This document shows, piece by piece, positions 1,495 to 19,817 of a stretch of DNA of 64,000 nucleotides. The stretch comes from an uncultured Nitrososphaerota archaeon. GTDB lineage: Archaea > Thermoproteota > Nitrososphaeria > Conexivisphaerales > DTJL01. The notes under the pieces are model-generated. The model was not told where the DNA came from. It was given only the letters and a program-made list of their open reading frames with translations, and did not search any database. The stretch is taken from positions 1-64,000 of the forward strand of contig CAWJIE010000005.1 in the NCBI GenBank assembly GCA_963842885.1. Reading direction: 5' to 3'. Numbering within the stretch: position 1 is the first letter of the stretch; every line of letters begins with the position of its first letter. A program made the translations under genes and the position numbers.

Positions 1495-1563
1495 GAGAGC
1501 GGGAATCTTGATTTAAGGGTTGGATCGCGCGCCGGCTACAGTTGGCGCGTTCCCCGCATTAGT

Positions 1564-3246: not shown

Positions 3247-3377
3247 CGCGGGCCCAACATCCAGACTCAGGGTAATAAATGCCGCCCCTGCACAAGGTAA
3301 TCCATACGCGGGCTCGAGGCCAAAACGTCGTCCTCAGTTGGAGTGAAGGGGATTAACTGCCTCACCCGCCTCTACCC

Positions 3378-3563: not shown

Positions 3564-3703
3564 CCCTAAGGCTCTTGTTCCTAAATCGGCGCGAGCATCG
3601 CAACCCCACCTCCGACGTCAACAGGTGTTCTCCCAAAATGCCCGAGGCGTGAATGTGGCAGTCATTTAAGCCGCTGGCGGTTGGTCCTTGGCTGGTGAAC
3701 TTG

Positions 3704-3898
3704 ATGGGTAAAGGAGGACGTGGTCAAGGACGTCATCACCCGAGTCCGAACGATCAGCGTTCAAACGCGAAGAACCCGACTGGCCATGAATACACAGCTG
3801 CGGTAGACAACAGAAGCGCCCAGCTCAATCCGACGAGTCCAGAGTACAAGGGACCCGCTCCAAGCAAGGGCGACGATCAAGGAAGCAGCGACGACTGA
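3704..3898 (+). CDS. Small hydrophilic protein with two (N/D)xRSxxxNPT repeats
   Basis: NDQRSNAKNPTGHEY / VDNRSAQLNPTSPEY. TTTAAG box at 3665 and GGTGA RBS before ATG 3704. Confidence 0.6.
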   Translation: MGKGGRGQGRHHPSPNDQRSNAKNPTGHEYTAAVDNRSAQLNPTSPEYKGPAPSKGDDQGSSDD

Positions 3899-4009
3899 CC
3901 TCATGATTCTTTTCTCCCTCCCTCACGTACTGTTTTGTTTGATGATCCTCTCCAGCCCAAAGACAGCTACAACTGAACCAATAATTACTCCGCTAACCAT
4001 GGGCATCTC

Positions 4010-4417
4010 GTGGGACAGTACAGGTTCGAAGTCCGAGTTTCGACGAAACCAATGTCGGGCTCAAGAGCGAAGTACGAGAGGAAGAAGGAATTGATTGAGG
4101 CTATCGAAGAGGCGAAGACGACGGACGAACTTGAAACGGCAAGAAGAGCGTTCGCTGACAAGAAAGTGAAGGTATCCGTTAGATTCAATTTAGAGAAGCC
4201 AGAGAAAGGCCGTTCTGATACGATCGGGAAGAAGGACCTTGACAACATGTTGAAGCTTGTGCTTGATTCTTTGCAGACGAAAGCAGACAGCCAAGGGAAA
4301 CTGGACGGCTTAGGATTGATTTCAAATGACAATTGCATCTACCGTCTAGAAGCTAACAAAAGGCTGGTGGATAGACCAGAACAGGCAGGAATCCAACTCA
4401 GTATATCAGAGTACTAG
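4010..4417 (+). CDS. rusA: RusA-family Holliday junction resolvase
   Basis: KKDLDNMLKLVLDSL...GLISNDNCIYRLEANK matches the RusA DxDNxxKxxxD and NDxxI motifs. Confidence 0.8.
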   Translation: MGQYRFEVRVSTKPMSGSRAKYERKKELIEAIEEAKTTDELETARRAFADKKVKVSVRFNLEKPEKGRSDTIGKKDLDNMLKLVLDSLQTKADSQGKLDGLGLISNDNCIYRLEANKRLVDRPEQAGIQLSISEY

Positions 4418-4532
4418 GCTGATTCGTTACCACCGCTTGGGAGTTGGACCGTCAACCATCCGTATCTTGATTTCACCACAAGGTCATTCGCCCCAGCCCG
4501 CCAAACGCCTTTAATAACTCCAGACAGTTGTA

Positions 4533-5492
4533 GTGGTAGGAACATCTCGGTGCAGCCTGTTGCTGGAACTTGAGACGAGCGAACCACTGCCACGAGCTAA
4601 GGTGCTTCAGAGACCTCGCAAGTCCAAGTTCATAGAGGAGTACTGGGCCCCAGGACAGAAGCCCTCGGGCATACTATGCAACCAGTTCTACGAATTGAAG
4701 TGGTCCAACGGCTGCATGTTCGGCTGCGAATATTGCTATCTGAGAGGTACGTTCAGATATAGTCGTTGGCGAGGATTCGAGCAGACCGTCTTCTCCAACA
4801 CGCAGAAGATGCTTCAAGAGGTGGAGGAGTTCCTGAAGTTGGAAAGACCCTATGTCCTCCACACGGGCGAGGTCTCTGACAGTCTGGCGGTGCCTGGAAG
4901 CGAACGGACAATGGGCGAGTTGGTCAAGCTCTTCGGGATGCAGGACAGGCACACGCTCCTGATCCTCACGAAGTCAGATAACATCGAATCCCTCCTCGAT
5001 CTGCCTCACAATGGGAGGACGGTGATCGGGTTCAGCATCAATCCGCCCAAGATCGCCAGCAGGTTTGAAATCGGCGCGGCCAGCACTGATCAGAGACTAA
5101 GGGCGGCAGAACGTTGTATCGATGCTCGGTACAGGGTGATGGTACGGGTTGATCCGATGATTCCTGCGGTAGGGTGGAGGGCTCAATACGCGAGCTTGTT
5201 CTCGAACCTCAACAATCTGAAGCTGCATGGGATCGTCGTGGGGACTCTGAGGGCCTATCCTGGGCTGCTACACACACTCTCTCCCGCTCTGCGGGCCATG
5301 CTGGAAGAGAGAGACATCGATGGCAGGTGGCACTTGAAGAAGTCGACCAGGGAGAACATGTACGACTTCGCGTTCAGAAGCCTCAAGTTTGAGCGGATGG
5401 GTGTGTGCAAGGAGACTGGAGCAAGATGGGCTGGACTGGTCAAGCAGCACGGGCCGAAAAAGTTCTACTGTAACTGCAACTGCAACGTCTGA
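4533..5492 (+). CDS. Spore photoproduct lyase-like radical SAM protein (copy 1)
   Basis: GCMFGCEYCYLRGT (CX3CX2C), TGEVSDSL, LTKSDN, FSINP..FE..AAS..QRL.AA, RVDPMIP; C-terminal CKET...CNCNC. Confidence 0.85.
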   Translation: MVGTSRCSLLLELETSEPLPRAKVLQRPRKSKFIEEYWAPGQKPSGILCNQFYELKWSNGCMFGCEYCYLRGTFRYSRWRGFEQTVFSNTQKMLQEVEEFLKLERPYVLHTGEVSDSLAVPGSERTMGELVKLFGMQDRHTLLILTKSDNIESLLDLPHNGRTVIGFSINPPKIASRFEIGAASTDQRLRAAERCIDARYRVMVRVDPMIPAVGWRAQYASLFSNLNNLKLHGIVVGTLRAYPGLLHTLSPALRAMLEERDIDGRWHLKKSTRENMYDFAFRSLKFERMGVCKETGARWAGLVKQHGPKKFYCNCNCNV

Positions 5493-5541
5493 AAGCGACG
5501 CAGGCTTATATCCATCACCACGCTCTGACACTGGGGAACTC

Positions 5542-6608
5542 TTGTCCGACGAGAGTAGGACCAAGTACAGAGAGGCCGCCTTTAAGGCTTGGAGAACCAT
5601 ACGCAAGCAGCGTCGGGAGGAGGCTGCGCTTGGTACCGCCAGGCTTGAGTCCTTTGTTCAACCTATAGTTGTCGAACGGATAACGCATCCCGAACTCGCC
5701 CCCCGTGCAACTGGAGGCGCACCGCCTTCCGCATTCAGGATCGTAAGGCCCTTCGATAAGACCCCTTCGAACATCGTCTGCGGCCGTTTCTGGGAGATAA
5801 GGTGGGGCTTTGGTTGCCCATTCAATTGTGCGTACTCATGCACTCAGGGGCACCAGGCGGGGCAACATGAAGCCTATCATTATCAGACCTGAAGTTGTAA
5901 TCGAGGAACTGGGCAGGGTGTTCTCTGACGCCCGTTTCAACGACGGACGGGCGACGCTGTTCAACAGCGGCGAACTGTCGGACTCGCTGATGAACCCCAA
6001 GGTGATGGCGCAGATAGCCGAACTTCTTTGAAACCCAGAATAGGCACAAGCTGTTCGTCCTAACGAAGTCAGGAACCAGGGCCATTCGCGAATTTGCTGC
6101 GAAACGGCGAAAGCAAACGATATGCGCTTGGAGTGTCAATCCGCCCTCGATTGCCACTAGATGGGAGCAGCGTGCATCCACGCCTGAGGATAGGCTCGAA
6201 GCCGCAAAGATTGCCAGATCCCAAAGGCTATGAGGTTAGGCTCAGGGTGGATCCCATAATCCCGATAGATGGATGGAAGCGGGATTACGAGTCTCTGATA
6301 TCTGCTTTGGTTGCAGCTGAGCCGACGAGGGTGATCATCGGCACACCGAGAGGGCTTCACAAGACAATCCTATACGCGGCGCTGGGGGGCTTGGACATGG
6401 GCTGGGCCGCCTACTTCGAGAGCGAAGAGACTGGATGGGGAATGAAACTCCCACTTCAGACTCGACTTGAGATATACGGTTTCATGTATGACAAGTTGCA
6501 ATCCGCAGGGATAGGCGGGCGACAGGTTTCCATCTGCAAAGAAACCGTTGAACTCCACAGGTTGATGGGTCATAATTGTTGGGCAACTGTCTATGTTACA
6601 CGAGTTAG
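5542..6608 (+). CDS. Spore photoproduct lyase-like radical SAM protein (copy 2), multiple frameshifts
   Basis: CGRFWEIRWGFGCPFNCAY, then FNSGELSDSL, LTKS, RVDPIIP, GTPRG, CKET, and a terminal NCLCYTS* in a shifted frame. N-terminal AAFKAWRTIRK motif. TTATAT box at 5507. Confidence 0.8.
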
Positions 6609-6652
6609 TGACACGCGATGGGGAACCGGAGGACCGTCTTCTGGATGGCTTA

Positions 6653-7580
6653 TCAGAACCAATCGGTCAGGTCTACCGTTCCGTCTCTTCGAGCCTTGTC
6701 CATTATGGCCTGCATTATCTTGCCGCCTGTGGGGTTTCTGGTTGTGAAGATCAGATAGGTATCGGGGGTCTCTTCGTCCGATGGGCATTTCCATCCATTT
6801 GATGTTGTCGTAATACTTCCTAAGGCTAGAAACGTACAGGTCTAGCAGCCTTTTCCTTCTGTCCGATGCGGAGACCCCTTCGGTCCATGCGTCCCTCCAG
6901 CTCTGGTCATTCATGTACGAGTCTATCGTGTGCACAGTCTCCTCGGCCTGAGATCTCGGTGGAGTCGTTGGATTCCAGTTTTTTAGTAAGCCTGCCGACC
7001 TCTCGACGGCTTCCAGAGAGAAGTGAATAAAGAGCTCCGTGTGGCTTCTCTCAAGTACCCGTTTTACGGTCTCGAATCGTATGACTGGATTCCCCACGCC
7101 AAACGGATCGATGTAAATGAGAGCGAATGCATCTTTGATCTTGTCAAGTTGGTTTGGAAGGAGCTCGTTGGTGTCGCCACGGAGCCTTGTACAGAAGCTT
7201 TGGTAAGGTTCGGTGTTCTTGAGAAGCCTCGTGTAAGTCTGTTCGTCGTACTCTATGAAGACGCACCTGACTTCCTCCTTCTTCGTCTTGTCTTTGATTT
7301 CGTTCTCAACGATGCTCCTAGTCTTTGCCATGATCAGGGGCGAACCATCGATAGCTCTGTCGTCCCAGCTCTGAACTATTCCGCTGCCGGCGCACGCGTC
7401 AACAAAGAAGTGAGGTATCTCTTGATTACGCATGTATTAGGCTCAGCGGGGGGCAGTACTTCTCAGGACCTCGTACTTGTGACGCGTGTCGGCCGACGCT
7501 TGTACAATGTGGCAGTTGGGGCATATCCTCCGCGGGCGGTCGGGCTCCTTGTGCCCACAGACGCAGCACGTCCACGTCAT
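6653..7580 (-). CDS. tcmP: TcmP (three-Cys-motif partner)-family SAM-dependent methyltransferase with N-terminal Zn ribbon, frameshifted
   Basis: Reconstructed MTWTCCVCGH..CPNCH..DTRHKYEVLEKY..FFVDACAGSG..GSPL..VFIEYD..GDTN..YIDPFG..ELFIHF..YLIFTTRNPTG..IM..IM. Confidence 0.8.
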
Positions 7581-7712
7581 TTTCTCGTACTCCTTTCTTG
7601 GTCGGATGATATTAACATGCAGATTACAAGGCGGACCGCCTCGTGCTACGGGATGCGTCTTTGTTTAATTCGGCGCGGGACTGTGTCAAACAAGCCAAGC
7701 GCTGGTTCTAGG

Positions 7713-7868
7713 CTACTCCCGACGCTTACCCCCAAGCCTGACTTGCTCCATCCACTGATCCATGCACTTGACACAGGTCTAGGCATGCGGCCAGTGCTCA
7801 GGATCAGGCACCGTCAGCGGGATACCATGCTTCCCACAGTAGCCCATCGGCGCTTCCTCGGCTGACAT
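7713..7868 (-). pseudogene. Small Zn-finger protein (CxxH...CxxC) with in-frame TAG at 7779-7781
   Basis: MSAEEAPMGYCGKHGIPLTVPDPEHWPHA*TCVKCMDQWMEQVRLGGKRRE*; metal ligands lie on both sides of the stop. Confidence 0.45.
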
Positions 7869-7922
7869 CCTCTCAAATGTTCGCTCGCAGTTCCTAATAT
7901 GCTATTACTGGGGAGTTACCTC

Positions 7923-8352
7923 TTATCGCTCGTCCTTTCCAGTAAGCTCCTTCCACTGGTCCACTACAGATATGTCATGCATATCTTCCCCTTCCTTCTC
8001 ATATCCTACCGTGATATCGAACCTGATCCTGATTTCGTCGACTCTCTCTCCGCCGTCAGGACCATAATCCGTCAGCTTGGCAAAAACCCTGTAGCAACCG
8101 TCGCCGAATCCTGTCGTCGAGAATACGCCATCAACTCCAGTAGGATCCTTCGAGGTGAATCTGCCGAACTGCCCAGTATCTCCTTTCATCAACGCGTCCT
8201 CGATCAACCTGACGCTCTCATCGGTGCAAAGTCTGAAGGATGGAGGACGTATGCAGGATCCACTACGATAATAGTCCCTGTATTGACACCCACGGTTCCA
8301 ATCTCAACCCACTTGTGAGGATATAGAGGCAACCCAGTCGCCAAGTCATTCA
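7923..8352 (-). CDS. DUF4241-like hypothetical protein, frameshifted
   Basis: IGTVGVNTGTIIVVDPAY upstream of a frameshift, then GVFSTTGFGDGCYRVFA. Confidence 0.55.
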
Positions 8353-8434
8353 ACCAAGTCACCCTTAAGATTTCAGCTCACCCAATCAAGAGCAGATGAC
8401 GTGTTCCTCTCTTCAAGTATAAATCGGTGCGCGG

Positions 8435-9030
8435 ATGCTTTACGATATGTTGACACAACGTGCTCGGGAACTGCAGAGCGAGCCACTCGTTTGGTATGCT
8501 GTGTATGGATCGAACCTCCTTCGAAGCCGTTTCCTACTCTATCTTGAAGGCAAAACTTCCGCGCAGATAAGAGCCGATCAGTCCTTCCGACTCCATCACA
8601 AACTCTACTTTGCTTATGAATCGTCGACTCGCTGGGGGAATGGCGGAGTTGCATTCGTTGGCCTTGAACGGGTGACTCCACCGCCGACCCTCGGTCGCGC
8701 ATATCTTCTGAGCCTTTCTCAATTCAAAGTGGTGGCAGAGGGGGAGAACGGTGGAATCGATGTCAAGATCTCCCCAGAGGATCATTAGTCGGAAAGCAGG
8801 TCGAAATCTCGTCAAGAGGTCGATACCGAGTTCTGCTGCCATGCGGGTCGCTGCGGAGGATTCCAGTCGTGACCTTAACGGGAAAGCCTGGGGAGGCGAC
8901 CCCACGAACGCTGCCATCTAGCAAATACCTGGACGTAATTCTACGCGGTCTGAAGGAAACATATCCGAGAAAGTCCTCGGCCGACATCGAACGATATATC
9001 CAAGAGGTCCTTCGATCCAACGTCAGCTAG
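8435..9030 (+). CDS. Gamma-glutamylcyclotransferase-like fold protein, frameshifted
   Basis: VWYAVYGSNL, LYFAYESSTRWG.GGVAF, GRAYLL...QF...ENG, then PSSKYLDVILRGLKE in a shifted frame. Confidence 0.7.
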
Positions 9031-9483
9031 AGCGCTTTCACCTTGTGTACAGACCAAATGCAGGACTTGTAAACTGCGACGTTCTCAACCATGGCCCTCA
9101 ATAGAACGAAGCGAGCAAAGAGCTCAGGCTCCGAGGTCGCAGGTGCCATCTGGATATCCGTGCGAATCCCTTCCGGCCTGCATGTTCCTTGATTAAACTC
9201 TTCCTAGTACCAGAAGAGATAGTGACTTCGCAATTCTTTTGAACTAACAATCATAACAAGAATAACACGGCCTACAGGACCTGTGCCATCTGCGGAAAGA
9301 AGGCATTGCCCCGGTGAGGGCGTCTACTATGGCGGTCGGCCCATCCACAAGTACCGCATCTAGATGCAACGCCGGGCGTGCGCTTCGTCATTGTGAAATG
9401 ATAAATACGCGAACGTACCATCGATCGCATGCAATGTCTCTTACCGAGAGTGGCGGTAAGGGAACCGGACCCGAGGTTCTAGT

Positions 9484-9500
9484 GCACGCCCGCAGCACCA
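9484..9500 (+). repeat. Left att-like 17-bp direct repeat GCACGCCCGCAGCACCA
   Basis: Identical copy at 19433-19449; ends 6 bp before the integrase ATG. Confidence 0.75.
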
Positions 9501-9506
9501 TACTCT

Positions 9507-10706
9507 ATGGTGCATAATCTCCACCCTGAAAGGAATCTGGCTCTGTCGGTGACCATCAGCGACTCCATCTACGACTACGACTACAGGCTGAGGAACGCCC
9601 TCTCCCTGCTGGGGCGCTCCTCCCTGTGCGACAGGGACAGGGAACTCGTCCTGTCCTTCGTGGACCTCCTCACGGCCCAGGGGGTGAGCAGGGGCCGTCT
9701 CGCCAAATACGTCTTCCACCTCAAGGTCGCAGGCGAGAGGCTGGCTCTCCCCTTCGAGGACGCAGGCAGGCGTGACATCGAGCGCCTGATGGCCTCTCTC
9801 CACAGGGACGGGTACGCCCCCAACACGGTCGCCGACTACTCCATGGTCATGAAGAGGTTCTACAAGTTCGTCAGGTGCGGCAACATCGACGTTGACACCC
9901 CCTATCCCACGGAGGTCAGGTGGCTCAGGAAGACCGTCAAGCCGAACGAAAGGAGGCAGCCCGACTTCTTCAGGACGGACGAAGTCAAGGCCATGATCGC
10001 CGCCTCCAGCAGGCTGAGGGACAGGGCCATGCTGGCGGTGGGTTTCGAAGCTGGCCTCAGGGCTGCCGAGCTGCTGGGCGTCGACGTCGGCGACCTCAGG
10101 TTCGACCAACTGGGCGCCAGGCTACGGGTCAGGGGCAAGACGGGGGAAAGAATGGTCAGGCTCATCGTCTCCTCTCCCGTGCTCGCCAGCTACTTCGACC
10201 TCCATCCCTTCAAGGATGACCCATCGGCCCCGCTGTGGCTGACCGTAAGCACAGGCCGCAGGAACACGAGGGTGTCTTGGCTCGCCTGGGACAGAATATT
10301 GAAAGAACTCGCGGAGAGGGCGGGGATCAAGAGGCGGGTCCATAATCACATGCTCAGGCACGGCTCAGCCACACACAACGCCAAGTACCTCACCGACGCC
10401 GAGCTGAGGTACTACTATGGATGGTCTGCGACATCGAAGATGCCGTCTTTGTACGTGCACCTGAGCGGGCAGGATCTGGATGGGAAGCTGGCAAGCCTCT
10501 ACGGGCTGGCGCCGCCCGATGGCTCGGAGCCCCAGTTCGTCCCCGTGGTCTGTCCGCGCTGCGCCGAAAGCAACACACCAGGGACCCGCTACTGCCACAG
10601 GTGTGGTTCCCCCATCGCCGACTCCGACGTCGCGAGGGCCCGCTGCGCGGCTTCGACTCCCGTCAAAAATGTCATCTTTACGCAAGGAGATATTCCGCCT
10701 GAATAA
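9507..10706 (+). CDS. Tyrosine recombinase/integrase with C-terminal double Zn ribbon (Int1)
   Basis: AGLRAAEL (R), RGKTG (K), HMLRH, GWS (W), LYVH (Y); CPRC...CHRCG. Confidence 0.93.
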   Translation: MVHNLHPERNLALSVTISDSIYDYDYRLRNALSLLGRSSLCDRDRELVLSFVDLLTAQGVSRGRLAKYVFHLKVAGERLALPFEDAGRRDIERLMASLHRDGYAPNTVADYSMVMKRFYKFVRCGNIDVDTPYPTEVRWLRKTVKPNERRQPDFFRTDEVKAMIAASSRLRDRAMLAVGFEAGLRAAELLGVDVGDLRFDQLGARLRVRGKTGERMVRLIVSSPVLASYFDLHPFKDDPSAPLWLTVSTGRRNTRVSWLAWDRILKELAERAGIKRRVHNHMLRHGSATHNAKYLTDAELRYYYGWSATSKMPSLYVHLSGQDLDGKLASLYGLAPPDGSEPQFVPVVCPRCAESNTPGTRYCHRCGSPIADSDVARARCAASTPVKNVIFTQGDIPPE

Positions 10707-10858
10707 TTCTGAATGATGCCTCGATAGAGGCACCCTTGGTATATATAGGGCTGAAAGCGGAACAAACGTCCCTTCTTTCGAACATGCCATCGTGAGGCTG
10801 GGAAGTCGGCGTCAGGCACTGACCCCTGCGGGGCCAAATCCTGATTATATCATGCGAT

Positions 10859-12109
10859 ATGGAAACAATACGAACCGCGACCGACCTGTACAACTTCGAA
10901 TACAGGATGCAGAACGCTACCGACCTCCTCGGAAGGGCCAACACGAGCGACGCCAACAAGAAGCTGATAGAGGGCTTCATCAGCCACCTCAAAGTTCAGG
11001 GAATGGGCTTGGCGAGGAGGGTGAAGTTCAAGCTCCACCTGAAGGTCATAGCCGAGACCTTCGGAAAGGACTTCGTTGACGGAAACAGAAAGGACGCCGA
11101 AAAGTTCGTAGGATGGCTGCGGGATAGCGGCTATGCCCCAAACACCTTCAAAGACTATGTGTCGGTTTACCGTCGCCTCTTCCGTTTCATCCGTTGCGGA
11201 GTCGATGACGAAGATACTCCGTACCCCGATGAAGTAAAATGGATGAAGAAGCTGCTGAAACCAAAGGCCATAGAGCACGAGGAGCTGAAATATCTCACAG
11301 GGGAAGAGGTCGAGACCATGATAGGGGCGGCCGACAACGACCTTGACAAGGCGATGCTGTCGGTAGGCTTTGAGGTGGGCCTCAGGGCTTCGGAGCTACT
11401 GCTGGCCAACGTCGGGGACATAGACATGGGCGGAGCCCGCCAGACCATCACCGTGCGGGGAAGGACTGGCGAGAGAACCATCAGGCTCATTTCATCCGTC
11501 GCCCACCTCTCCCGCTACCTAGAGACCCATCCGAAGATCGACGACCCCAGCTTCCCCCTCTGGTGCACCAAGTCCCCCAGCTGGAAGGACAGGAGGTTGG
11601 GATATGTCGCGTGGGAAAGAAGGATGAAGAAGCTAGTGAAGAAGGCTGGCATTGAGAAACCAGTCCATAACCACATGCTGAGGCACGGGTCGGCGACACG
11701 GTCCTCGATGTTCCTTCAACCTATGGAGATGTGTAAACTCTACGGATGGTCGCCCAACTCCAAGATGCCAGCCGTTTACGCGCACCTCTCTGGCATCGAC
11801 ATCGACGACAAGCTCGAGGTCATGAATGCGGGAAAGCCGTCAGCTCCGCCTCGGCGAGAGTTTGTAGCCTCCACCTGCCCCCGATGCGGTGAACTCAGCT
11901 CTCCAGGGCTTCGGTACTGTGGGAAGTGCGGGACTACATTAGTTCAGAAGGAACTCTTCAAGAGCATGGTAGAAATCGAGGAGACGAAGAGCGCCATACG
12001 CGCTTTCACAAGCATAATCGATGGCGCGCTGGCGGCTACTTCTCCAGCTCGACCTCAAGGCGCTCCAGCAGCTTGCGGAGGAGCAGGAGCTGCGACCTCT
12101 TCATCGTAA
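10859..12109 (+). CDS. Tyrosine recombinase/integrase with C-terminal double Zn ribbon (Int2), paralog of Int1
   Basis: VGLRASEL, RGRTG, HMLRH, GWS, VYAH; CPRC...CGKCG. Confidence 0.93.
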   Translation: METIRTATDLYNFEYRMQNATDLLGRANTSDANKKLIEGFISHLKVQGMGLARRVKFKLHLKVIAETFGKDFVDGNRKDAEKFVGWLRDSGYAPNTFKDYVSVYRRLFRFIRCGVDDEDTPYPDEVKWMKKLLKPKAIEHEELKYLTGEEVETMIGAADNDLDKAMLSVGFEVGLRASELLLANVGDIDMGGARQTITVRGRTGERTIRLISSVAHLSRYLETHPKIDDPSFPLWCTKSPSWKDRRLGYVAWERRMKKLVKKAGIEKPVHNHMLRHGSATRSSMFLQPMEMCKLYGWSPNSKMPAVYAHLSGIDIDDKLEVMNAGKPSAPPRREFVASTCPRCGELSSPGLRYCGKCGTTLVQKELFKSMVEIEETKSAIRAFTSIIDGALAATSPARPQGAPAACGGAGAATSSS

Positions 12110-12297
12110 TCGTGACATCGACGTCATCTTCGGGCTGACCTGTATGGTTTTGCTCTACCATATCTCATATAATGCACTTTGCCATCCTGTCAATCCCCCC
12201 GACTGAGACTCATCACGGGGTGCTCTCGGTGTCGTCCTAACATGGTGCGGGGGTAATTTTGGGGGTCAATTTACGAGAGAGTCTGGATTAGTCATCC

Positions 12298-12320
12298 TTG
12301 TTCCTCGTATTTAGGAACAA
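12298..12320. promoter_or_regulatory. Inverted repeat TTGTTCCT-N7-AGGAACAA upstream of the wHTH gene
   Basis: Perfect 8-bp arms; nearby GGGGGT(C)AATTT direct pair at 12249-12272. Confidence 0.4.
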
Positions 12321-12339
12321 CTCAAGATAATGGAAGAGG

Positions 12340-13443
12340 GTGCTCGTGGTCAACCGCAAGATGTCCGCGCGCTTTGCGACCGTCGCCCCATCGGGAAGCC
12401 ATCGGCAATCTGAGCGCCTGCCAGTGTCTGAGCTGGGTCAGCACGGATTGGCCGCCATTATGTTGATAGTGAGCCGACAGCAAAAACTTTCTAAGGCGTT
12501 TTTGACCCGTCTACAGGTGGTCCTGCCGCTTATTGAGGAAGGGCACTATCAACGGGAGATTGCGATCAGGACGGGGATGTCCCATCAACTCGTCTGCTAC
12601 TGGACGAAGCAATTCGAGCAGCATGAGCTGATTACGAGGATACCCGAACCGATGCCCGTCGGCTGGACCTTGCACAGGCACAAGAGCAACCCAGTGTTCT
12701 ACGAGCTGACCCAAAGCGGGAAAAGGGTCCTCGACACTATCGAGAAGGGTGGAAAGGCTGGGCGGGGCTTCAGGTTGGAGAACTTGAGGTTCAAGTATAC
12801 CGTGCTGAGCGGCCCCGAGAAGGAGATGCCGTCCTCGAAGGAAGTCCACATGAAGCACTGGAATCAGAGCATCGGGACGGAGCTGGGCTACACTTGGCGC
12901 CTCAACCAAGGGAAGGAGAAGTCGCTGGAGATACTCGTCGAGCCGCTCTGGGGGAGGGACCCGTTCGAGCTATACTTCTATGCGCGGTCCGACGCCGACG
13001 CCGTAGCCCTGTCTCTGGCAGAAAGGTTCGGGATGCAGCTTGGTCTGCCAGTCGAGAGTTCGAGGCCAGAGATCGCCATCGATGATCCCGTCTCAAAGGT
13101 CGTGACGGAGTTCATGAACGTAAAGTCGGAGGAACAGAAGTGGGACCGTAGCCCTGGGAAGGGAGAGGGTGGTGAAGCCGAGCTAATTACCATGGACGCC
13201 GTGAGTGAGTATATTCACATGCCAAGACACGTGAAAGAGAACACACAGGCGGTCAAAGGGCTAGCAGAGCAGGTGGCACAGATGGCAGAAGCCCTCAAGG
13301 GGATTGTGAGCGTATCACGCACCCAGAACGCCATTCTACCTGAGCTTGCCCGTACTATTGCTAAGCTGAGTGACGTCTTGGAAGGACAAGAAAGACGTCC
13401 GACTTCAGGTTCAGTGCGAGGAGTGAAGCCAGCTGGAGCTTAA
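12340..13443 (+). CDS. N-terminal winged-HTH protein with uncharacterised core and C-terminal coiled coil (start may be ATG 12460)
   Basis: YQREIAIRTGMSHQLVCYWTKQFEQHELI...YELTQSG is a MarR-like wHTH; 367-aa ORF. Confidence 0.75.
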   Translation: MLVVNRKMSARFATVAPSGSHRQSERLPVSELGQHGLAAIMLIVSRQQKLSKAFLTRLQVVLPLIEEGHYQREIAIRTGMSHQLVCYWTKQFEQHELITRIPEPMPVGWTLHRHKSNPVFYELTQSGKRVLDTIEKGGKAGRGFRLENLRFKYTVLSGPEKEMPSSKEVHMKHWNQSIGTELGYTWRLNQGKEKSLEILVEPLWGRDPFELYFYARSDADAVALSLAERFGMQLGLPVESSRPEIAIDDPVSKVVTEFMNVKSEEQKWDRSPGKGEGGEAELITMDAVSEYIHMPRHVKENTQAVKGLAEQVAQMAEALKGIVSVSRTQNAILPELARTIAKLSDVLEGQERRPTSGSVRGVKPAGA

Positions 13444-13464
13444 TGCAAAATGCATTTCTGTATT
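13442..13464. repeat. Palindrome copy 1 (AATGCAAA-ATGCAT-TTCTGTATT)
   Basis: Degenerate copy of 14214-14235 and 14888-14913; overlaps the stop codon of the upstream gene. Confidence 0.7.
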
Positions 13465-13559
13465 CAACATCAAGACCGTGTCCACTTCGCCTTATCGATG
13501 ATCAACGGCAGGTGCCTTTGGCCGAGGATGAGGGTGAAGGCGCCGCGAGGGCTCCATTT

Positions 13560-13710
13560 ATCACCGCTATTAGCGTTGATGGGCGGACTCGCCCCGACCA
13601 TCGATGTTATTAGCGGTGATATGGAACGTGGACTTAGTAGTAATTCCTTATTGGTACTATGATGGCCGATGGGCGGACTCGCCCCGACCATTGGCACTAT
13701 GATGACCGAT
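13560..13710. repeat. Paired 21-bp imperfect palindromic boxes plus 23-bp direct repeat
   Basis: ATCACCGCTA-T-TAGCGTTGAT (13560-13580), second box 13600-13620; GATGGGCGGACTCGCCCCGACCA at 13578-13600 and 13668-13690. Confidence 0.7.
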
Positions 13711-13821
13711 AAAGGGTGATGAGACGATATTATCGTTGGCATCGTTTCTAAGCGCGAGGTGATGGATAATCCCTAGGGCTTGAAGGTTCATCTGATGATT
13801 ATGTATGTCAAGGCATGACAT

Positions 13822-14136
13822 ATGCCATATAGCAATTGGAAGCATCCCCGTTGGAGACTGAAGGTTCCACCATCCATACTTGAGGAAGCCAAGCGTTACG
13901 AGCCCGCTGGTGAGGAGGATATGTGGCCGCCAGACGAGCTTCAATGGCTCTACATAATGCATTTGGGGAGTGTCCGTAGCCAGTGTCTTCGGCGTCTCCT
14001 CTTCTTGGATTACATCGTGATCCATCGACATTTGGACGTTGAAGAGATCGGGCCTACCGTCGTCATGGAGATACTAGGCGTGAATCAGAGGACCGCCATC
14101 GACTATCTGTATACGTTGAGGGAATTTCGCACCTAG
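13822..14136 (+). CDS. Small protein with C-terminal HTH
   Basis: PTVVMEILGVNQRTAIDYLYTL fits an HTH pattern. Confidence 0.6.
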   Translation: MPYSNWKHPRWRLKVPPSILEEAKRYEPAGEEDMWPPDELQWLYIMHLGSVRSQCLRRLLFLDYIVIHRHLDVEEIGPTVVMEILGVNQRTAIDYLYTLREFRT

Positions 14137-14213
14137 TACTCGGTGCGCCTCTACTTGTTCAGCCTCTCAAGCTCCTTCGGTTTGTGGACGGTCGTGTTGG
14201 TGTCCTTCTTCTA

Positions 14214-14235
14214 ATGCAAAAATGCATTTTTGCAT
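14214..14235. repeat. Palindrome copy 2, perfect 22 bp ATGCAAAAATGCATTTTTGCAT
   Basis: Self-complementary on direct reading. Confidence 0.85.
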
Positions 14236-14530
14236 GGTACAACAGCAAGACTGAGTGCCCTGTGTGTCCGTCCGAGAAGCAATTACGGCGGGTGCCTTAT
14301 TTTTGAACTATTTAAAGCGGGTGACTACTCATCCATGGCTGATGGTTTCCTTAGGTGACGAGGCGCACGGTACTGGAAGAACACCCAGAGAGCAGCTCTC
14401 CCCCTCTGCGGCGTCGAACGCTGGGCCGACTGGCACGACTGACGACGGAAGGCTTATCAACGCAAATAAGGGTGATGGTCGGGCTGCTACGACCATTAAC
14501 GCTAATAAGGGTGATGGAAAGCGTCGCCCA

Positions 14531-14885
14531 ATGCCGATGTCGTTCTTTGCGGCGGTGTTCACCCTAGCGCTCTTCTGCCCTAGGTTTCACCTACGACGAT
14601 ATCCGCGCGGCGTCGGGATACGTCTCGTCACTTACGAGCCAGAGGTACTACATGAAGAAGCTGGTCGAAGCCAAATATCTGACGACCAACAAGGCAAGGA
14701 GAGGTCGCCTGTGGTTCGGGACGTCTAATCTGAAAGCTATGGCCTTCAAGCGCATCGCGGACTCACCAGACGTCGTCTTGGGGATGCTAGAGTCGACGTT
14801 GAAGCTGTACCCGAATCTCTCCGACTACAAGAAGCCATTCATCGAGAAGATGGTCGCAGCAGGGCGTGACGCCGTCCAACACTAG
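14531..14885 (+). CDS. Winged-HTH protein paralog A, frameshifted
   Basis: MPMSFFAAVFTLALF.. joined to MKKLVEAKYLTTNKARRGR..LKLYPNLSDYKKP; aligns end to end with 15175-15585. An upstream ATG at 14342 is also possible. Confidence 0.7.
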
Positions 14886-14887
14886 CT

Positions 14888-14913
14888 GAATGCAGAAATG
14901 CATTTTTGCATTC
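14888..14913. repeat. Palindrome copy 3, GAATGCAGAA-ATGCAT-TTTTGCATTC
   Basis: 26 bp with one mismatched pair, starting 3 bp after the TAG of paralog A. Confidence 0.85.
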
Positions 14914-14985
14914 GACAAGGAGACCAAAGAGGCACCTGCCTTAATTTTTGAAGAATTGAAAGGAAGTTCCTGCTCGTCCTGACTG

Positions 14986-15585
14986 ATGGTCTCCCTGGGC
15001 GACAAGGCGCAAGAGACTGGAAGCACACCTGAAGGGCAACCCTTTCCTTCTAAGGCGTCGGAAGTCGAGCGAACTAGCAGGAGTGGCGATGAAAGCCGCA
15101 CCGCCTCTAATAGAGTTGGTGGGCGGGCTAATTCGACCACCGCCTCTAATAAGGTTGGTAAGAGTCGCCGACCGATGCCGATGTCGTTCTTTGCGGCGGT
15201 GTTCGTCCTAGCGATTTTCCGCCCAGAGGGCTTCACATACAGCGACATCCACGCTGCGTCAGGGTACACTCCATCATCTTCGAGCCAGAGGTACTACATG
15301 GAGAAACTGGTCGAAGATGGTTATCTGACGACCAACAATGCAACAAGAGGCAGACACTGGAACTCGACGCCTAAGCTGAGAGCTATGGCCTTCAAATATG
15401 TCGGAAGCTCGCCAGACGTCATCTTGGCGATACTGAAGTCCACGCTGAAGCTGTACCCGAATCTCTCCGACTACAAGAAGCCGCTCATCGAGAAGATGAT
15501 CGCGACAATCCAGCCGATGTTCGTCTCCGACAGAATGAGAATGGGCAACCCGACTTCACCATCTCCTCTCCAACCAACACACTGA
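14986..15585 (+). CDS. Winged-HTH protein paralog B (true start may be ATG 15175)
   Basis: FTYSDIHAASGY..SQRYYMEKLVEDGYL..wing; duplicated with paralog A at DNA level. Confidence 0.72.
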   Translation: MVSLGDKAQETGSTPEGQPFPSKASEVERTSRSGDESRTASNRVGGRANSTTASNKVGKSRRPMPMSFFAAVFVLAIFRPEGFTYSDIHAASGYTPSSSSQRYYMEKLVEDGYLTTNNATRGRHWNSTPKLRAMAFKYVGSSPDVILAILKSTLKLYPNLSDYKKPLIEKMIATIQPMFVSDRMRMGNPTSPSPLQPTH

Positions 15586-15753
15586 TGCAATGAGCGGCAA
15601 GAAGGTACAACTGGCGGCGCGGTCACCGACGTGACCATCTCGCATCGTGCCGTTGCCGCACACAACCAAGCATCATGGTTTCAGCTGTGATCGTGCCCAA
15701 CGTCTTCTACGTCGTCGCGGGCATTGTAGTCAACGCCCCTCGGCGTATGCAGG

Positions 15754-17157
15754 ATGAGCGGGCCGTCGATTTCTATTATATCAGACGCAATGGCAAATGT
15801 TCCTGCCGAAGATAACCGAGCCGCATCGGCCAGCGTCGCCGCTTTGGGTAACCATCTTCAGGAGATCCCCATTGGTGACATCAGGATCCTCTCGCACAGG
15901 CCGTTGCGCGACGTCTCAAGCCTGATCCAAAGCATACAGGAGGTTGGACTGCTCCACCCAATCATTGTGACCCGTGACAACGTCTTGGTGGCAGGGTATC
16001 ATCGAATTGAGGCGTGCAAAGCGCTCGGCCATCAAACGATTGCCTGCTTGGTCAGGGACTATGATGACCTGCGCCGCGAATACGCCTCCATATCGGAGAA
16101 CTTGTTCAGGAATGAGGGGACAGCACTCGAAAGAGACCTCTGGACGGCACGCCTCAAAGAACTTCACGTCTCGCTCTTCCCTGAGACGCTACCATCCAAT
16201 GGCAGGGAATTGGCCAATAGGAGATGGCATGCGAGCGACAAGATGTCGTTTGCTGGTCAGGCTGCCAGACAGACGAAGCAGAGTAGGCGCACCATCGAAA
16301 GGCAGGCTAGAATCGGCAACGCCCTGAAGGAAGCGGGGATCGATGACCAGCTACGGGGAACCAAGATTGAGAACAACCAGACTGAATTGACCCACCTCTC
16401 CAAGCTTCCGTTGGAGGAGAGAAAGCAGGTTGCCGAGAAGCTGCACAAGGGCGAGGCCGACAACGTCACCGATGCCAAGAAGCTAATCCACCAAGAGGAA
16501 TTGAAGGGCAAGGTTGAGGAACACGCGAAGGTGAAGGATGCATCCGTGTTCCATCTGGACTTCAGGACTGCTGGCGTCATCCCGCCCGATTCCATCCACC
16601 TTATCTGCACGGACCCACCATACCTGAAGGAGTACCTGCATTTGTGGCCAGCCCTCGCCGACTTCGCCAGCGTCGTCTTGAAGCCTGGCGGTTACCTGAT
16701 CTCATATGCTCCGCACGAGTATCTCCCTGAGGTCATAGCAGCCCTTTCGACCAAGCTTTCCTACTATTGGATCATCGCAGTCAAGCAGACTGGCGCGGAG
16801 CCGCGGATGCAGAAAAAGAGTGTTATGGTACAGTGGAAGCCAATGGTCATCTTCTACAAAGGAGAACGCCCGCTCGAACATGAGTGGTTTGGGGACATGC
16901 TGGTCGGAGAGATGGGGAACAAAGAGCTTCATGTCTGGGCGCAGGGCGAGTCGGAGGCTGCGTATGTCATCGAGAAGTTCACCCAGCCTGGTGACGTCGT
17001 TCTAGACCCTATGTGCGGAAGTGGGACTACCCTGCTTGCAGCGACGAATTTGGGACGCAGAGCGGTAGGCATAGACATCGATCCCGTAGCCTGCGACACG
17101 ACGAAGAAGGAGTTGGAGAAGCTCGGCTGGCGGACGTCGGACGTCCTCCGCCAGTAA
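15754..17157 (+). CDS. ParB/Srx N-terminal domain fused to an N6/N4 DNA methyltransferase
   Basis: SIQEVGLLHPIIV..AGYHRIEA..ISENLFR (ParB); TDPPY and VLDPMCGSGTT..GIDID (beta-class MTase order). Confidence 0.9.
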   Translation: MSGPSISIISDAMANVPAEDNRAASASVAALGNHLQEIPIGDIRILSHRPLRDVSSLIQSIQEVGLLHPIIVTRDNVLVAGYHRIEACKALGHQTIACLVRDYDDLRREYASISENLFRNEGTALERDLWTARLKELHVSLFPETLPSNGRELANRRWHASDKMSFAGQAARQTKQSRRTIERQARIGNALKEAGIDDQLRGTKIENNQTELTHLSKLPLEERKQVAEKLHKGEADNVTDAKKLIHQEELKGKVEEHAKVKDASVFHLDFRTAGVIPPDSIHLICTDPPYLKEYLHLWPALADFASVVLKPGGYLISYAPHEYLPEVIAALSTKLSYYWIIAVKQTGAEPRMQKKSVMVQWKPMVIFYKGERPLEHEWFGDMLVGEMGNKELHVWAQGESEAAYVIEKFTQPGDVVLDPMCGSGTTLLAATNLGRRAVGIDIDPVACDTTKKELEKLGWRTSDVLRQ

Positions 17158-17232
17158 AGGAGATATTCTATAACGGTTTCGGACAGAAAAATCCGACGGC
17201 CTAGCCGCTCAGTGTATTACGCTACCGCTACT

Positions 17233-17838
17233 CTAGGAGAAAGGCTTGACGTTCAAGCTGTTACCTATGGTCACCAATTCCCCCAAACAGAGGTCTCGGA
17301 AGCGAACAAGATATGTCCCGTAGTCTGCCGAAGAGTTGGCGGCGATCTGGTAGGTCACGAGCCCGTACGTGCTGTTGACGAGCACTGCGTCGTGAATCGA
17401 GACAGAAATACCCACCTCTTGAGAATTGATGGGTATCAGGTCGCTGACGCCTGTTCCGTTCACCTCTGAAACATAGGTCCAGTCCGCGACCGCGAGGTAG
17501 TCCTTGAAGCCCTGCGTGTCGTTCACTGGATACTGTATGTCGAAGTACACCATGGTAAGGTAGCCAGAGGAGCCTGGCTTCAGGACGTACTGGTTGAGTT
17601 CGGGGACGGTGTTCGGGGCTCCGCCAGGATAAGGCTGGCTGTAAGTGATGAAGCCGTCCGCGCTCCTTATCGAGACCCATGAGAATAGCGCAGGGCAACC
17701 GTTGTCGACTCCCCTCGGCAACTGGCCAGTCGAAACGCCAAGTGACTGCGGAACAAGATAGACGAACGAAGAGCCCGCCACTATCCCCAGCGTCAGGGCC
17801 AGAAGCACCGCGATGGCCGACCTCCTGCGAAGGCTCAA
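17233..17838 (-). CDS. Membrane-anchored exported protein
   Basis: N-terminal RRR plus hydrophobic helix, beta-rich body with NxT/S sequons. Confidence 0.65.
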   Translation of the reverse strand: MSLRRRSAIAVLLALTLGIVAGSSFVYLVPQSLGVSTGQLPRGVDNGCPALFSWVSIRSADGFITYSQPYPGGAPNTVPELNQYVLKPGSSGYLTMVYFDIQYPVNDTQGFKDYLAVADWTYVSEVNGTGVSDLIPINSQEVGISVSIHDAVLVNSTYGLVTYQIAANSSADYGTYLVRFRDLCLGELVTIGNSLNVKPFS

Positions 17839-18214
17839 GACGGATAGGGAGGGGCTCGGCTGGGTTATAATGCCAACATTGGTACAAGGATCAGGTAAGG
17901 GTGTTCAACATTTGGTACGGGAGTAATCACGGGATTCCCTTCCACATGACCCAAGACTCGTAAGCCAAGAAGCCGACGGTCAGCGCGGTGAGCCCTAGTA
18001 TGAAGGCCACCGCCCTGAAATCACTGGGAGGAGAAAGGAGGAGGCGGGGCATGGGCAATGTCGTTTCGCTGAAGTAGATGCTGTATGCCACCTATTCGTC
18101 GGCTATCGTCAGAATCCTGTAACTGGTCCACAATTGGAGACCACGGTGGCGGGGCGACATCAGGGCTGTCCACAAAGCAGGAACTAAATACGGCATGCTT
18201 CCAACACTGGATGG

Positions 18215-19250
18215 TTGAGCGGCAGCCAGTCAGACGACGGGTTCAACAAGGCGAGGGCGGACCTCTTCGAAGCCCTAGGCCACCCGCTCAGACTGGAGAT
18301 ACTGCGCGCCCTGTCCGAGTCGCCCCTGGGCTTCGCGGATTCTTAAGAGGAAGGTGAACGTCACCAGCAGCGGCCATCTGACGCACCACCTTGAGAAGCT
18401 GGACGGGCTGGTGATGACGACGCCAGATGGTCTGTATAGCTTGTCGGACGACGGGAGGGAGGCGCTCAGGGTCGTGGGAGAGCGAGGTCCGTCGGTTGAT
18501 CGGAATGGAGCCAAAGCGAACGCAGGGGGTAGGATACTCGTCAGGCGCTGGCTCGTAGTGGGCGCGGTGGCCTCCATCATCTTCTTGGCTTCCATGACGG
18601 GCCTGGTCTACTCACAGCTCAGCTCCCAGATTGGCGCCCAGCAGAAGGAGATAGACTGGTTGCAGGAATTGCTCGGTCAGTACAACGTCACGACCTATGC
18701 CGATGCCGCTGACATCGGGCTTGGGTTGCGCCTGAGCTTATCAGTGAACTCTAGTGTGATCTCTTCGAACCAAACCCTAGCGGTCGGCGTTTCCATCACG
18801 AACATCCTGGGCCGAACAAACAACGTCAGTGTCGCCAGCTCGTGGGCGTACGGCTTTCCCCCCGCCTTCTGTGGGATGACATTCGGCTCCCTGATCAATT
18901 ACGCTCCCTACAACGTCGCAATATTCTCTGGATTCTATACCCTCGACGACGTTTCCCAGGGAACCCCCTTACCGCTTTACCTTGAGGAGATTACTGGGAC
19001 TCATAACTGCCCCGAGATTCCCGTCGAGATTTCATCGTTCATGTTCTTGCCGTCGAGCGGAGCAGCCACCGTGGTGAGGGCAGACAACGAAAACACGCAG
19101 GTCGACAGCGTCGGGGCGTCCCTTACGATAGGCGCGGGCACGGGCGCAAACTCGTGGAGCCCCCCCATCTCCTTCACGCCAGGCGTCTACACGGTGCTGG
19201 CGGGGGACGAATGGGGTCAGCTCGTCGTGCTTCACTTCTTGGTTCAATAA
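18215..19250 (+). CDS. ArsR-type wHTH / transmembrane / extracellular domain regulator, one frameshift
   Basis: FEALGHPLRLEILRAL..GFAD(LKRK)VNVTSSGHLTHHLEKL, a TM helix, then a beta-rich domain ending PGVYTVLAGDEWGQ. Confidence 0.75.
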
Positions 19251-19432
19251 GGCTCCGAATCTGACCGTGCTCTTGAGATTACACCCACCCTTTTAGGAGG
19301 GTGAAGGTCCCACCGCAACCACCCTGTCGGGTTTCAGTCAGACAACCTCTCTTTCATGCCCTCTATGAGCCATAGGGATTCTATCCCTTGCGATATCATC
19401 TCAGACGGAGATTATAACCCGAAAGCAAATAA

Positions 19433-19449
19433 GCACGCCCGCAGCACCA
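19433..19449 (+). repeat. Right att-like 17-bp direct repeat GCACGCCCGCAGCACCA
   Basis: Identical to 9484-9500. Confidence 0.75.
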
Positions 19450-19817
19450 ACAATTCTGTCCAAACCCCTACTGTCGACGTGGGTCTCTCCTAACCCGCAT
19501 GAGGACCGCGTAGGACGATTGCATCGTTTCATGAGCCATCGACCCTTACTGGCAGATGGTCAACTCCCTCATCAGCACTTTGGACGACGAAGCTTCTCGC
19601 AAGAAGCAGGAGGCCGTCGAAATGCTCAGGCGAGTGGCCAAGGCGAATTCTCTTTGGGGATTTGACGAACAGCAAGTGGAGGCCCCAGACAGACGGGGGC
19701 ATCAGGCACCACATGGCCATCCACCGGCCGAACTGAAAGATGAGGTGGTTCGCCCGGGCATCGAGGCCTATTCAATTCGTTGATTAAGGGCATGGCCTTC
19801 CCGACTGGTGGTGGAAC

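Follow-up and report, generated by a model that had tools for sequence, protein, structure and literature searches.

A Tandem Array of Palindromes, Paired Boxes and Small Genes in a Putative Integrated Element of an Uncultured Nitrososphaerota Archaeon

Introduction

What function might be served by a block of non-coding DNA that recurs three times in succession, each time in front of a small gene? We have studied such an arrangement in an uncultured Nitrososphaerota archaeon, in which three modules lie in tandem downstream of two integrase genes. Each module contains a palindrome centered on ATGCAT, paired boxes of 21-23 bp and a small open reading frame (ORF), the predicted products being termed M1, M2 and M3. 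The DNA analyzed, referred to as the window, comprises positions 1-64,000 of contig 5 in a metagenome-assembled genome (MAG; GenBank GCA_963842885.1) of 2.03 Mb in 11 contigs, with a completeness of 87%. An earlier note on this DNA had offered two explanations, namely an array of cassettes shuffled by an integrase, and a switch or origin with several regulators, each helix-turn-helix (HTH) protein reading its own boxes.

The best explanation that we can offer, which we hold tentatively and with slightly less than even confidence, is that the modules are copies of a regulatory gene unit that has been tandemly amplified, and has partly decayed, within a cryptic integrated element; the manner in which it would work is one that we infer. 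In this unit a palindrome rich in T, located where the preceding gene ends, would be followed by a small GC hairpin with a T5 run and a TATA-like stretch, next by paired, partly palindromic boxes of 21-23 bp around a conserved spacer hairpin, and last by the gene for a small, probably winged-helix, protein.

The Paired Boxes

The boxes occur as four pairs, none of which is assigned to a strand. In module 1 the pair M1a (13560..13622) has two boxes of 21-23 bp placed 40 bp apart around a spacer hairpin. The complete unit is an inverted repeat with arms of 28 nt, and its calculated DNA fold has a free energy of −20.7 kcal/mol (z = −6.6). A second pair, M1b (13650..13712, boxes at 13650 and 13690, spacer of 21 nt), lies in the same module, the two having arisen by an internal duplication of 90 bp. 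In the pairs M2 (14456..14517, boxes at 14456 and 14495) and M3 (15100..15161, boxes at 15100 and 15139) the boxes are 39 bp apart, and are identical at 21 and 19 of 23 positions, respectively. The box pairs 39-40 bp apart that had been described in the earlier note are therefore confirmed, and to these are added the pair M1b and a conserved spacer, both of which it had missed. The spacer has the sequence TGGKCGGRCT-N4-6-CGACCA, and is able to form a hairpin of 7-8 bp. Within the genome this motif matches the four box pairs only, always on the plus strand. Elsewhere in the class, 400 genomes yielded four single hits, compared with four for a reversed control.

The boxes vary where the spacer does not. 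The two boxes of a pair are identical at 16, 19, 21 and 19 of 23 positions in the four pairs, whereas boxes of different pairs share 9-17 of 23, with 14 of 23 for M2 against M3 at equal position. M1a and M1b have identical 21-nt spacers, while their boxes share only 11-13 of 23 positions. We counted the positions at which both boxes of one pair differ in like manner from both boxes of another, and found six such shared fixed differences between M2 and M3, and six between M1a and M1b. When independent change was simulated, six or more shared differences were obtained in 0, 0 and 3 of 50,000 runs at per-site probabilities of change of 0.2, 0.25 and 0.3, respectively (P < 1e-4). Evidently, change in one box of a pair is accompanied by change in the other, and the spacer is retained. 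Such co-variation within a pair favors cognate protein-binding sites, with one protein reading both boxes. It is consistent with the suggestion in the earlier note that each HTH protein reads its own boxes in a multi-regulator switch or origin, and the box pairs can be regarded as predicted operators.

How might such operators work? We suggest that each box pair would be the operator of its own module protein, with a dimer bound to each box on the same face of the DNA, four helical turns apart. In M2 and M3, box 2 contains the sequence TAATAA centered 25.5 nt before the ATG that begins MPMSFF (14531 and 15175), which is the usual distance from TATA to start in leaderless archaeal mRNA. Box 2 would thus cover a TATA-like element situated 25 nt upstream of the conserved domain's ATG, and binding would shut the gene off by autorepression. 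Following duplication, each protein and its own boxes would have diverged together, the module-1 box pair itself being duplicated.

The arrangement is like that of autoregulated winged-helix repressors of the MarR, ArsR and Lrp types in its paired, partly palindromic boxes of 21-23 bp about four helical turns apart. In common with those having operators at archaeal B recognition element (BRE)/TATA sequences, the proximal box lies over a TATA-like element 25 nt before the start, and the protein is small, with a predicted helix-strand-helix-helix-strand topology, albeit in a poor model. It is unlike them in that the boxes of M2 and M3 lie also within a longer ORF, that searches place the module proteins in no named winged-helix-turn-helix (wHTH) family, and that the units here are tandemly amplified with boxes that diverge between copies.

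A number of properties of the boxes weigh against the operator interpretation. Slippage or gene conversion acting on a 39-nt tandem repeat is able to produce likeness within a pair with no selection at work. In comparisons between modules, box identity is 61% and that of the flanks 66-72%, so there is no extra conservation. In module 1 a distance of 110-260 nt separates the boxes from the ORF, and a TATA-like center is lacking. Lastly, the boxes of M2 and M3 lie inside long ORFs that start at 14342 and 14986. These are open and ungapped over this region, and their first six codons (MVSLGD) differ synonymously only, so that the boxes could encode a repeated peptide.

From such properties an alternative can be constructed, in which the array is a neutral tandem duplication in a decaying element, the palindrome, tail and boxes having merely accompanied a gene that was duplicated. 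The boxes would be a 39-nt repeat of 1.5 copies, whether coding or non-coding, homogenized by slippage or conversion and bound by nothing specifically. We consider this unlikely, though well short of implausible. It would accommodate the open reading frame through the M2 and M3 boxes and their lack of conservation above the flanks, together with the frameshift in module 2 and the possible truncation of the module-1 ORF by a TAG codon (see below), and the finding of no module homolog in any collection searched. It does less well with the box-spacer-box layout, which is kept with the same borders in four copies though the boxes differ at 9-14 of 23 positions, and which is retained by module 1 though the corresponding frame is closed by stop codons. 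Neither does it readily explain the identity of the M1a and M1b spacers beside their divergent boxes, nor the preservation of palindromes 2 and 3, which are far better kept than the adjoining non-coding DNA.

Other properties of the boxes were examined. A half-site motif, ATCANCGCNANTA, was not enriched genome-wide (88 hits, compared with 70 for a control), and Tandem Repeats Finder detected no array in 13300-15800. The box consensus proposed in the earlier note, ATCANCGCTA-W-TAGNGNTGAT, describes the first box of M1a well (M1a_1; 18 of 21 positions self-complementary), but the remaining boxes fit it poorly (10-16 of 21). Two further readings were dropped. The boxes are not well explained as target-site duplications of a tiny insertion, since boxes of different pairs are homologous, with up to 17 of 23 positions shared. 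A CRISPR-like repeat-spacer arrangement was set aside because it is the middle that is conserved and the flanks that vary.

The Module Genes and Their Proteins

Modules 2 and 3 are related by a tandem duplication of about 645-676 bp that includes both the gene and its upstream region. Compared over about 650 bp, they are 86% identical in the palindrome block, 66% identical without gaps in a 189-nt upstream ORF segment, and 78-91% identical in the domain-coding part. The module-3 gene (14986..15585, plus strand) is intact, and encodes 199 amino acids from the ATG at 14986, or 136 from the ATG at 15175. Its paralog in module 2 (14342..14885, plus strand) is split over two frames, with a 2-nt deletion near 14577-14582 that places the first helix (MPMSFFAAVF...) and the remaining domain in different frames. 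The earlier note had recognized that modules 2 and 3 encode paralogs, and the proteins are 70% identical in amino-acid sequence over 100 residues; the frameshift had escaped it.

The pattern of substitution indicates that the M2/M3 domain was under selection, in that the C-terminal 100 codons have an excess of synonymous changes in the true frame (16, compared with 11 and 4 in the others). A hand count from the alignment gave six synonymous and six non-synonymous codon changes in the 23 codons of the GFTY..QRYY stretch. The upstream 189 nt, from the ATG at 14342 or 14986 to that at 14531 or 15175, align without a gap. Here the differences fall 13, 26 and 25 times at the three codon positions, with 11 synonymous and 35 non-synonymous codons, and this barely differs from the other frames. 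On the sequence, both the upstream and the second ATG are candidates for the start codon of M2 and M3. The gene calls in protein databases start further downstream, giving products of 95 and 71 amino acids.

As judged by comparison of the sequences, modules 2 and 3 are a recent duplicate and module 1 is an older, partial copy placed before an unrelated orphan ORF of 104 amino acids (13822..14136, plus strand). Beyond its TAG the module-1 frame continues through 25 hydrophobic codons to a TAA at 14212-14214 that overlaps palindrome 2. The same TAA-TGCA arrangement is found at the end of the gene for P367, a 367-amino-acid protein encoded immediately before module 1. Because the frame is readable up to the TAA at palindrome 2, the TAG may be secondary, and the ORF may have been truncated by a premature stop. 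Together with the frameshift in module 2, this possible premature stop gives the array the look of one that is decaying.

Are the module proteins HTH proteins, as the earlier note had proposed? A part of this proposal is upheld. The P367 family is assigned as such by Pfam (see below), and hhalign aligns residues 17-54 of M2/M3 on the winged helix of that family, although weakly (E = 1.2e-3, probability 19%). The AlphaFold model of M3 has the order helix-strand-helix-helix-strand, in a prediction of poor quality (pLDDT 61). From these comparisons and models, the M2/M3 protein is probably a winged helix over residues ~17-54 of its 136-amino-acid form. M1, on the other hand, is unsupported as an HTH protein by family and fold searches. 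The earlier description of module 1, as the same scaffold in front of an unrelated HTH gene, stands in so far as the scaffold is shared and M1 is unrelated to M2 and M3 (no relation was detectable by BLASTP or hhalign), but not in its assignment of an HTH.

Several searches speak against a set of DNA-binding regulators. M1, M2 and M3 match no family in Pfam, PHROG or NCBIfam, and for M2/M3 there was no Pfam hit even at E = 10. The AlphaFold models of two of the module proteins are poor, with pLDDT values of 61 and 62. The best Foldseek rows for M3 are MarR-family chains, at non-significant E values of 0.13-0.8, while fold searches with the low-confidence M1 model gave nothing above background; from both models the matches were generically helical. 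An HTH-looking stretch in M1 was aligned by hhalign at E = 0.11 only. Comparison of the A4 profile with PDB sequences gave one hit, with E = 1.2.

The Palindromes and Gene-End Signals

The three palindromes lie at 13442..13465, 14214..14235 and 14888..14913, and are not assigned to a strand. Copy 2 is a perfect 22-mer containing A5 and T5, and copy 3 is a 26-mer with T5 and one mismatched pair. Copy 1 is degraded, differing from the others by a 1-nt deletion and two substitutions. The earlier account of three ATGCAT palindromes of 22-26 bp is thus accurate for copies 2 and 3, which are nearly perfect, but overstates copy 1, a poor palindrome. When TGCANAAATGCATTTNTGCA was searched for in the 64 kb as a degenerate pattern of 20 nt, with at most 3 mismatches allowed, only copies 2 and 3 were returned, where 0.00 sites were expected, and these are the sole sites of the pattern in the 2.03-Mb genome. 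Calculated DNA folds gave −4.3 kcal/mol (z = −0.8), −7.3 kcal/mol (z = −3.1) and −7.0 kcal/mol (z = −2.5) for copies 1, 2 and 3, respectively. Palindromes 2 and 3 are identical at 21 of 22 positions, while the DNA that adjoins them downstream contains an indel of ~30 nt; the palindromes are therefore conserved above their surroundings.

All three are found at the ends of reading frames. Copy 1 overlaps the TAA stop codon of P367, and copy 3 begins 3 nt beyond the TAG that closes the module-2 frame, in agreement with the earlier placing of two palindromes at the preceding stop codon. The TAA that copy 2 overlaps is in the frame of the module-1 ORF, 78 nt past the TAG of that ORF. Archaeal oligo-T terminators have at least five T on the sense strand shortly after a stop codon. 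There are five plus-strand T5 runs in 9400-19500, of which four are in the intergenic regions before modules 2 and 3, and two of these lie within the palindromes (14227 in palindrome 2 and 14903 in palindrome 3). The palindromes also provide T5 on the opposite strand. The T5 runs and the position at stop codons suggest, as the simplest reading, that the palindromes are terminators or insulators. Through its T5 and A5 runs, a palindrome would halt transcription of the upstream gene, and in both directions. Palindrome 1 fits this less well, for it has only T3 and no T5, and it folds no better than shuffled sequences. A protein-binding role for the palindromes is equally compatible with the data.

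Each palindrome is followed by a shared tail and by GGC..TGCCTT, as the earlier note had stated, and these are present in all three modules. In module 2 there follows a small GC hairpin, GGCGGGTGCC, with a T5 run and TATTTAAA (14285..14318, plus strand), a stretch that could be promoter-like, a second terminator signal, or both. Module 3 has the GC hairpin AGGCACCTGCCT and then TTAATTTTT (14929..14950, plus strand), a terminator-like match with a T5 run. Module 1 has ACGGCAGGTGCCTT (13505..13518, plus strand), identical at 13 of 14 positions to 14285-14298, with no T-run or TATA after it. The TATTTAAA/T5 stretch also lies some 30-40 nt before the upstream ATG of the long ORFs. A sigma-70 promoter and terminator scan, a method ill-suited to archaea, gave background level only.

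Two shorter sequences lie near the end of the array. TGATGCAA at 15583, taken in the earlier note as a possible remnant, is too short to evaluate. In the 3′ extension of the module-3 gene, ACAGAATGAGAATGG (window 15526-15545) can be loosely aligned to the left half of palindrome 3 (CTGAATGCAGAAATG), and may represent the decayed remains of a fourth palindrome through which the ORF reads, the match being too weak to rely on.

The Winged-Helix Protein P367

P367 (12340..13443, plus strand) is assigned by family profiles as an N-terminal winged helix followed by an uncharacterized C-terminal domain. All its homologs align only from residue ~45-60 onward, and for this reason we believe that the true start is probably the ATG at 12460, giving 327 amino acids. 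A start at 12460 would leave a gap of about 350 nt of non-coding DNA after the second integrase gene, which contains no boxes or palindromes of the module type. By exhaustive HMMER searching, 156 representative clusters were assigned to the family at E ≤ 1e-3, of which 55 also satisfy E ≤ 1e-10. Of the 28 members aligned, 17 contain MarR_2 and 16 HTH_24. P367 itself falls under the Pfam cut-off (HTH_23, 20 bits; MarR, 18 bits), and the profile matched only winged-helix regulators in the PDB, with MarR-family chains at E = 1.5e-7. The C-terminal ~200 residues match nothing.

Could the boxes be part of a replication origin? In this alternative the box pairs would be iteron-like sites for P367 as initiator, or centromere-like sites used with a ParB-domain protein, and the small genes would be accessory regulators of copy number or partition. 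We regard it as distinctly unlikely for the array as a whole, while an origin is possible for the module-1 boxes. The box pairs of module 1 begin 117 nt after the P367 stop codon, and M1a is the inverted repeat with 28-nt arms. P367 homologs adjoin an integrase gene in two of seven loci, in the manner of a core gene of small integrated elements, and a gene with a ParB N-terminal domain follows module 3. Krupovic et al. (2019; PMC6563490) raise, as an unverified possibility, a role for the wHTH proteins of these elements as initiators of replication. Iteron plasmid origins with a winged-helix initiator likewise have repeated sites, here of 21-23 bp, beside a winged-helix gene in a small mobile element.

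Yet P367 matched no Rep family in Pfam, PHROGs or NCBIfam, and its profile found winged-helix regulators alone in the PDB. With a single initiator one would expect a single iteron sequence, whereas the box sequences differ by pair. There are eight boxes in four pairs 39-40 bp apart, with identities of 9-17 of 23 between pairs, unlike the run of identical sites with a phase of ~22 bp that is seen in iteron origins. Moreover, in modules 2 and 3 each pair keeps a constant distance of 25 nt to a conserved ATG downstream, an arrangement better suited to control of a promoter.

The homologs of P367 offer no counterpart for the array. Matches covering most of the profile were found in 13 genomes among 400 others of the phylum, mostly of one other family, and none in viral contigs. 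The integrase-domain gene lies just upstream of the P367 homolog in both of the two loci out of seven, and one of the two is below the Pfam cut-off. When the neighborhoods of 15 loci from the 13 genomes were searched by tblastn with 11 window proteins, only P367 itself and one methylase fragment were recovered, with no relatives of the two integrases, M1 or M3. There were no like palindromes downstream in 14 loci, and no like repeats or boxes in four, which also tells against an origin associated with P367. Among the loci L037-L042, from another family of the phylum, several have a conserved hairpin, GCATGGAAAAAGTCCATGC, followed by T4-5 and preceded by CTGTTCAAAAGC, in the ~100 nt that come next to the stop codon of the P367 homolog. 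This hairpin looks like a terminator, and is alike in position and style to the ATGCAT palindrome without being its homolog.

The Integrases

The two integrase genes that the earlier note had placed upstream of the modules do encode tyrosine-recombinase domains. Int1 (9507..10706, plus strand) and its paralog Int2 (10859..12109, plus strand; 42% identity) both have a C-terminal zinc ribbon, and score 59.0 and 58.8 bits, respectively, against the Pfam Phage_integrase catalytic domain (PF00589; cut-off 27.1). The best NCBIfam match of Int1 is of the XerA type, at 90.6 bits, and both proteins are far below the XerA cut-off of 220.

Might one of these enzymes recombine the ATGCAT palindromes, such that modules can be excised, duplicated, inverted or reordered as in an integron? 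The earlier note had proposed a cassette array of this kind, and we now consider it highly improbable. There is a palindrome at every module boundary, the duplication of M2 and M3 starts at one, and an 8-6-8 geometry is formally compatible with the core site of a tyrosine recombinase. There are also two integrases and only one pair of flanking repeats, leaving one integrase without an assigned site. Like integron arrays, including archaeal ones, as described by Ghaly et al. (2022; PMC9668308), the locus has a tyrosine recombinase upstream of gene units that are each bounded by palindromes.

The detailed comparison is less favorable. Int1 and Int2 score 26 and 28.6 bits against the integron-integrase model TIGR02249, where the cut-off is 265, and 16-21 bits against PRK15417, with a cut-off of 435; they are not IntI-type integrases. 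The candidate attachment (att) site of the element is an unrelated GC-rich 17-mer (see below), and nothing was found that ties the palindromes to the integrases. Where it could be tested, an integron-like reading fails. An attC site has a length of 57-141 nt, and is marked by R and L boxes and by extrahelical bases in its imperfect hairpin. By eye the palindromes, at 22-26 bp, are shorter and nearly perfect, where Ghaly et al. (2022; PMC9668308) describe attC sites as longer, imperfect structures of single-stranded DNA. The units are not unrelated promoterless genes, but remnants or paralogs of one gene with promoter-like DNA of their own, all in one orientation, and a fully symmetric spacer would give no directionality. 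Finally, five related integrases in other Nitrososphaeria genomes (53-56% identity) have no module DNA and no array nearby.

A more elaborate scheme would combine these components as self-diversifying repressor-operator 'immunity' cassettes. Each small winged-helix protein would read its cognate boxes alone. A palindrome would serve both as a bidirectional terminator, insulating the cassettes, and as a site where the second integrase duplicates or removes them, and specificities could be stacked against related elements that come in. We think this improbable.

Occurrence and Significance

The earlier note had suggested looking for the modules and palindrome in related genomes and beside homologous integrases, and the palindrome was absent from the eight other genomes of the family, as was any such array from the five integrase loci. 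The palindrome pattern is absent also from the species-representative genome collection and from viral contigs. It occurs in three metagenome contigs of 41-42% GC that are otherwise dissimilar to the locus, which we take as coincidence. M3 is absent from 300 other genomes of the class and from viral contigs, and among seven candidates in a set of 5.8 billion proteins it found only itself, as did M1 among two candidates in the same set; these searches were word- or pattern-seeded, and can miss distant relatives. We could find no described counterpart of the layout in the literature and sequence collections searched, and we regard the duplicated regulator array as specific to its lineage. The evidence thus comes from one locus in one incomplete MAG, with no counterpart for comparison, and this too counts against a regulatory interpretation.

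If the amplified regulatory unit works as we suggest, nature would here offer, in compact form, a case in which a DNA-binding protein and the paired operators that it reads diverged together straight after gene duplication. The case would belong to a class of archaeal integrated elements about which little is known, and its three to four box variants and two to three proteins would supply testable sequence pairs for the study of changes in specificity. Its general importance is limited by its restriction to one locus of an uncultured genome in which two of three genes are apparently damaged and for which no relatives were found. More solid by-products of the analysis are the definition of a ~10-kb element, in which two integrases lie in tandem and a 17-bp repeat resembles an att site, and a family of ~150 clusters with a wHTH and a further uncharacterized domain that is sometimes found beside an integrase.

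The Putative Integrated Element and Its Surroundings

We read the region 9484-19449 as an integrated element of about 10 kb in a variable locus, with both integrases inside. Its ends are an exact direct repeat of 17 bp, which the earlier note had missed, with candidate attL at 9484..9500, found by repeat search and a break of synteny, and candidate attR at 19433..19449, found by repeat search; neither is assigned to a strand. The 17-mer is the sole exact repeat of at least 15 nt with a spacing above 1.5 kb in the first 26 kb. A search of the first 30 kb for a third copy with up to 4 mismatches gave none except for one site with 4 mismatches at 26174. The Int1 start codon follows 7 nt after the end of the left copy, as is consistent with a tyrosine-recombinase element.

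Comparison with a congeneric genome (G002) supports the left border. The left flank (window 9169-9512) is 90% identical there, up to the single copy of the 17-mer in that genome (16 of 17 positions), so that the break of synteny coincides with the left 17-mer. Beyond this G002 has 3.6 kb of other genes, and homology resumes at window 19745 (85%). No clean empty site was seen in this comparison, and the right border is for that reason less certain than the left. The presence of different genes at the corresponding site shows the locus to be a variable hotspot within the genus. In G002 these genes (contig C91, locus L069, oriented ~3250-6900) encode a 739-amino-acid serine/threonine-rich protein of secreted or surface type, together with small zinc-ribbon ORFs.

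Krupovic et al. (2019; PMC6563490) have documented cryptic integrated elements in Thaumarchaeota that are flanked by short repeats and carry integrases together with wHTH proteins, the latter of unresolved role. Like these elements of Thaumarchaeota/Nitrososphaeria, the present one is small, has a tyrosine integrase at one end and is flanked by a short direct repeat. It shares with them wHTH proteins, cargo of DNA-methylase type, an intergenic target, and no recognizable genes for virions or conjugation. It is unlike the elements as described there in having two tandem paralogous integrases (42% identity) and a triplicated array with no counterpart in the collections searched.

The cargo downstream of module 3 includes a ParB N-terminal domain fused to an N6/N4 DNA methyltransferase (15754..17157, plus strand), identified by Pfam, PHROG and NCBIfam. 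In the right part of the element an ArsR-like HTH ORF with the motif LFEALGHPLRLEILRAL (18215-18346) directly precedes a 298-amino-acid membrane-anchored ORF that has no family match (the two together occupying window 18215-19250).

The G+C content is 51-56% in bases 1-18,000, and about 60% across the remaining window. Bases 1-18,000 carry genes of mobile or defense type, including a DpnI-like gene, RusA, a spore-photoproduct-lyase-like radical SAM gene, the two integrases and the ParB-methylase fusion. An Rfam scan of 1-21000 found no RNA family apart from a tRNA-Ala (2863-2936, minus strand). To the left of the element is a stretch of low G+C (51-54%; window 1-9480), the window beginning at the end of the contig. 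Besides the tRNA, it contains the DpnI-like gene (1658-2335, minus strand), RusA (4010-4417), the radical SAM gene (4533-5492) and further fragmentary ORFs, and is probably another island or remnant array of mobile and defense genes.

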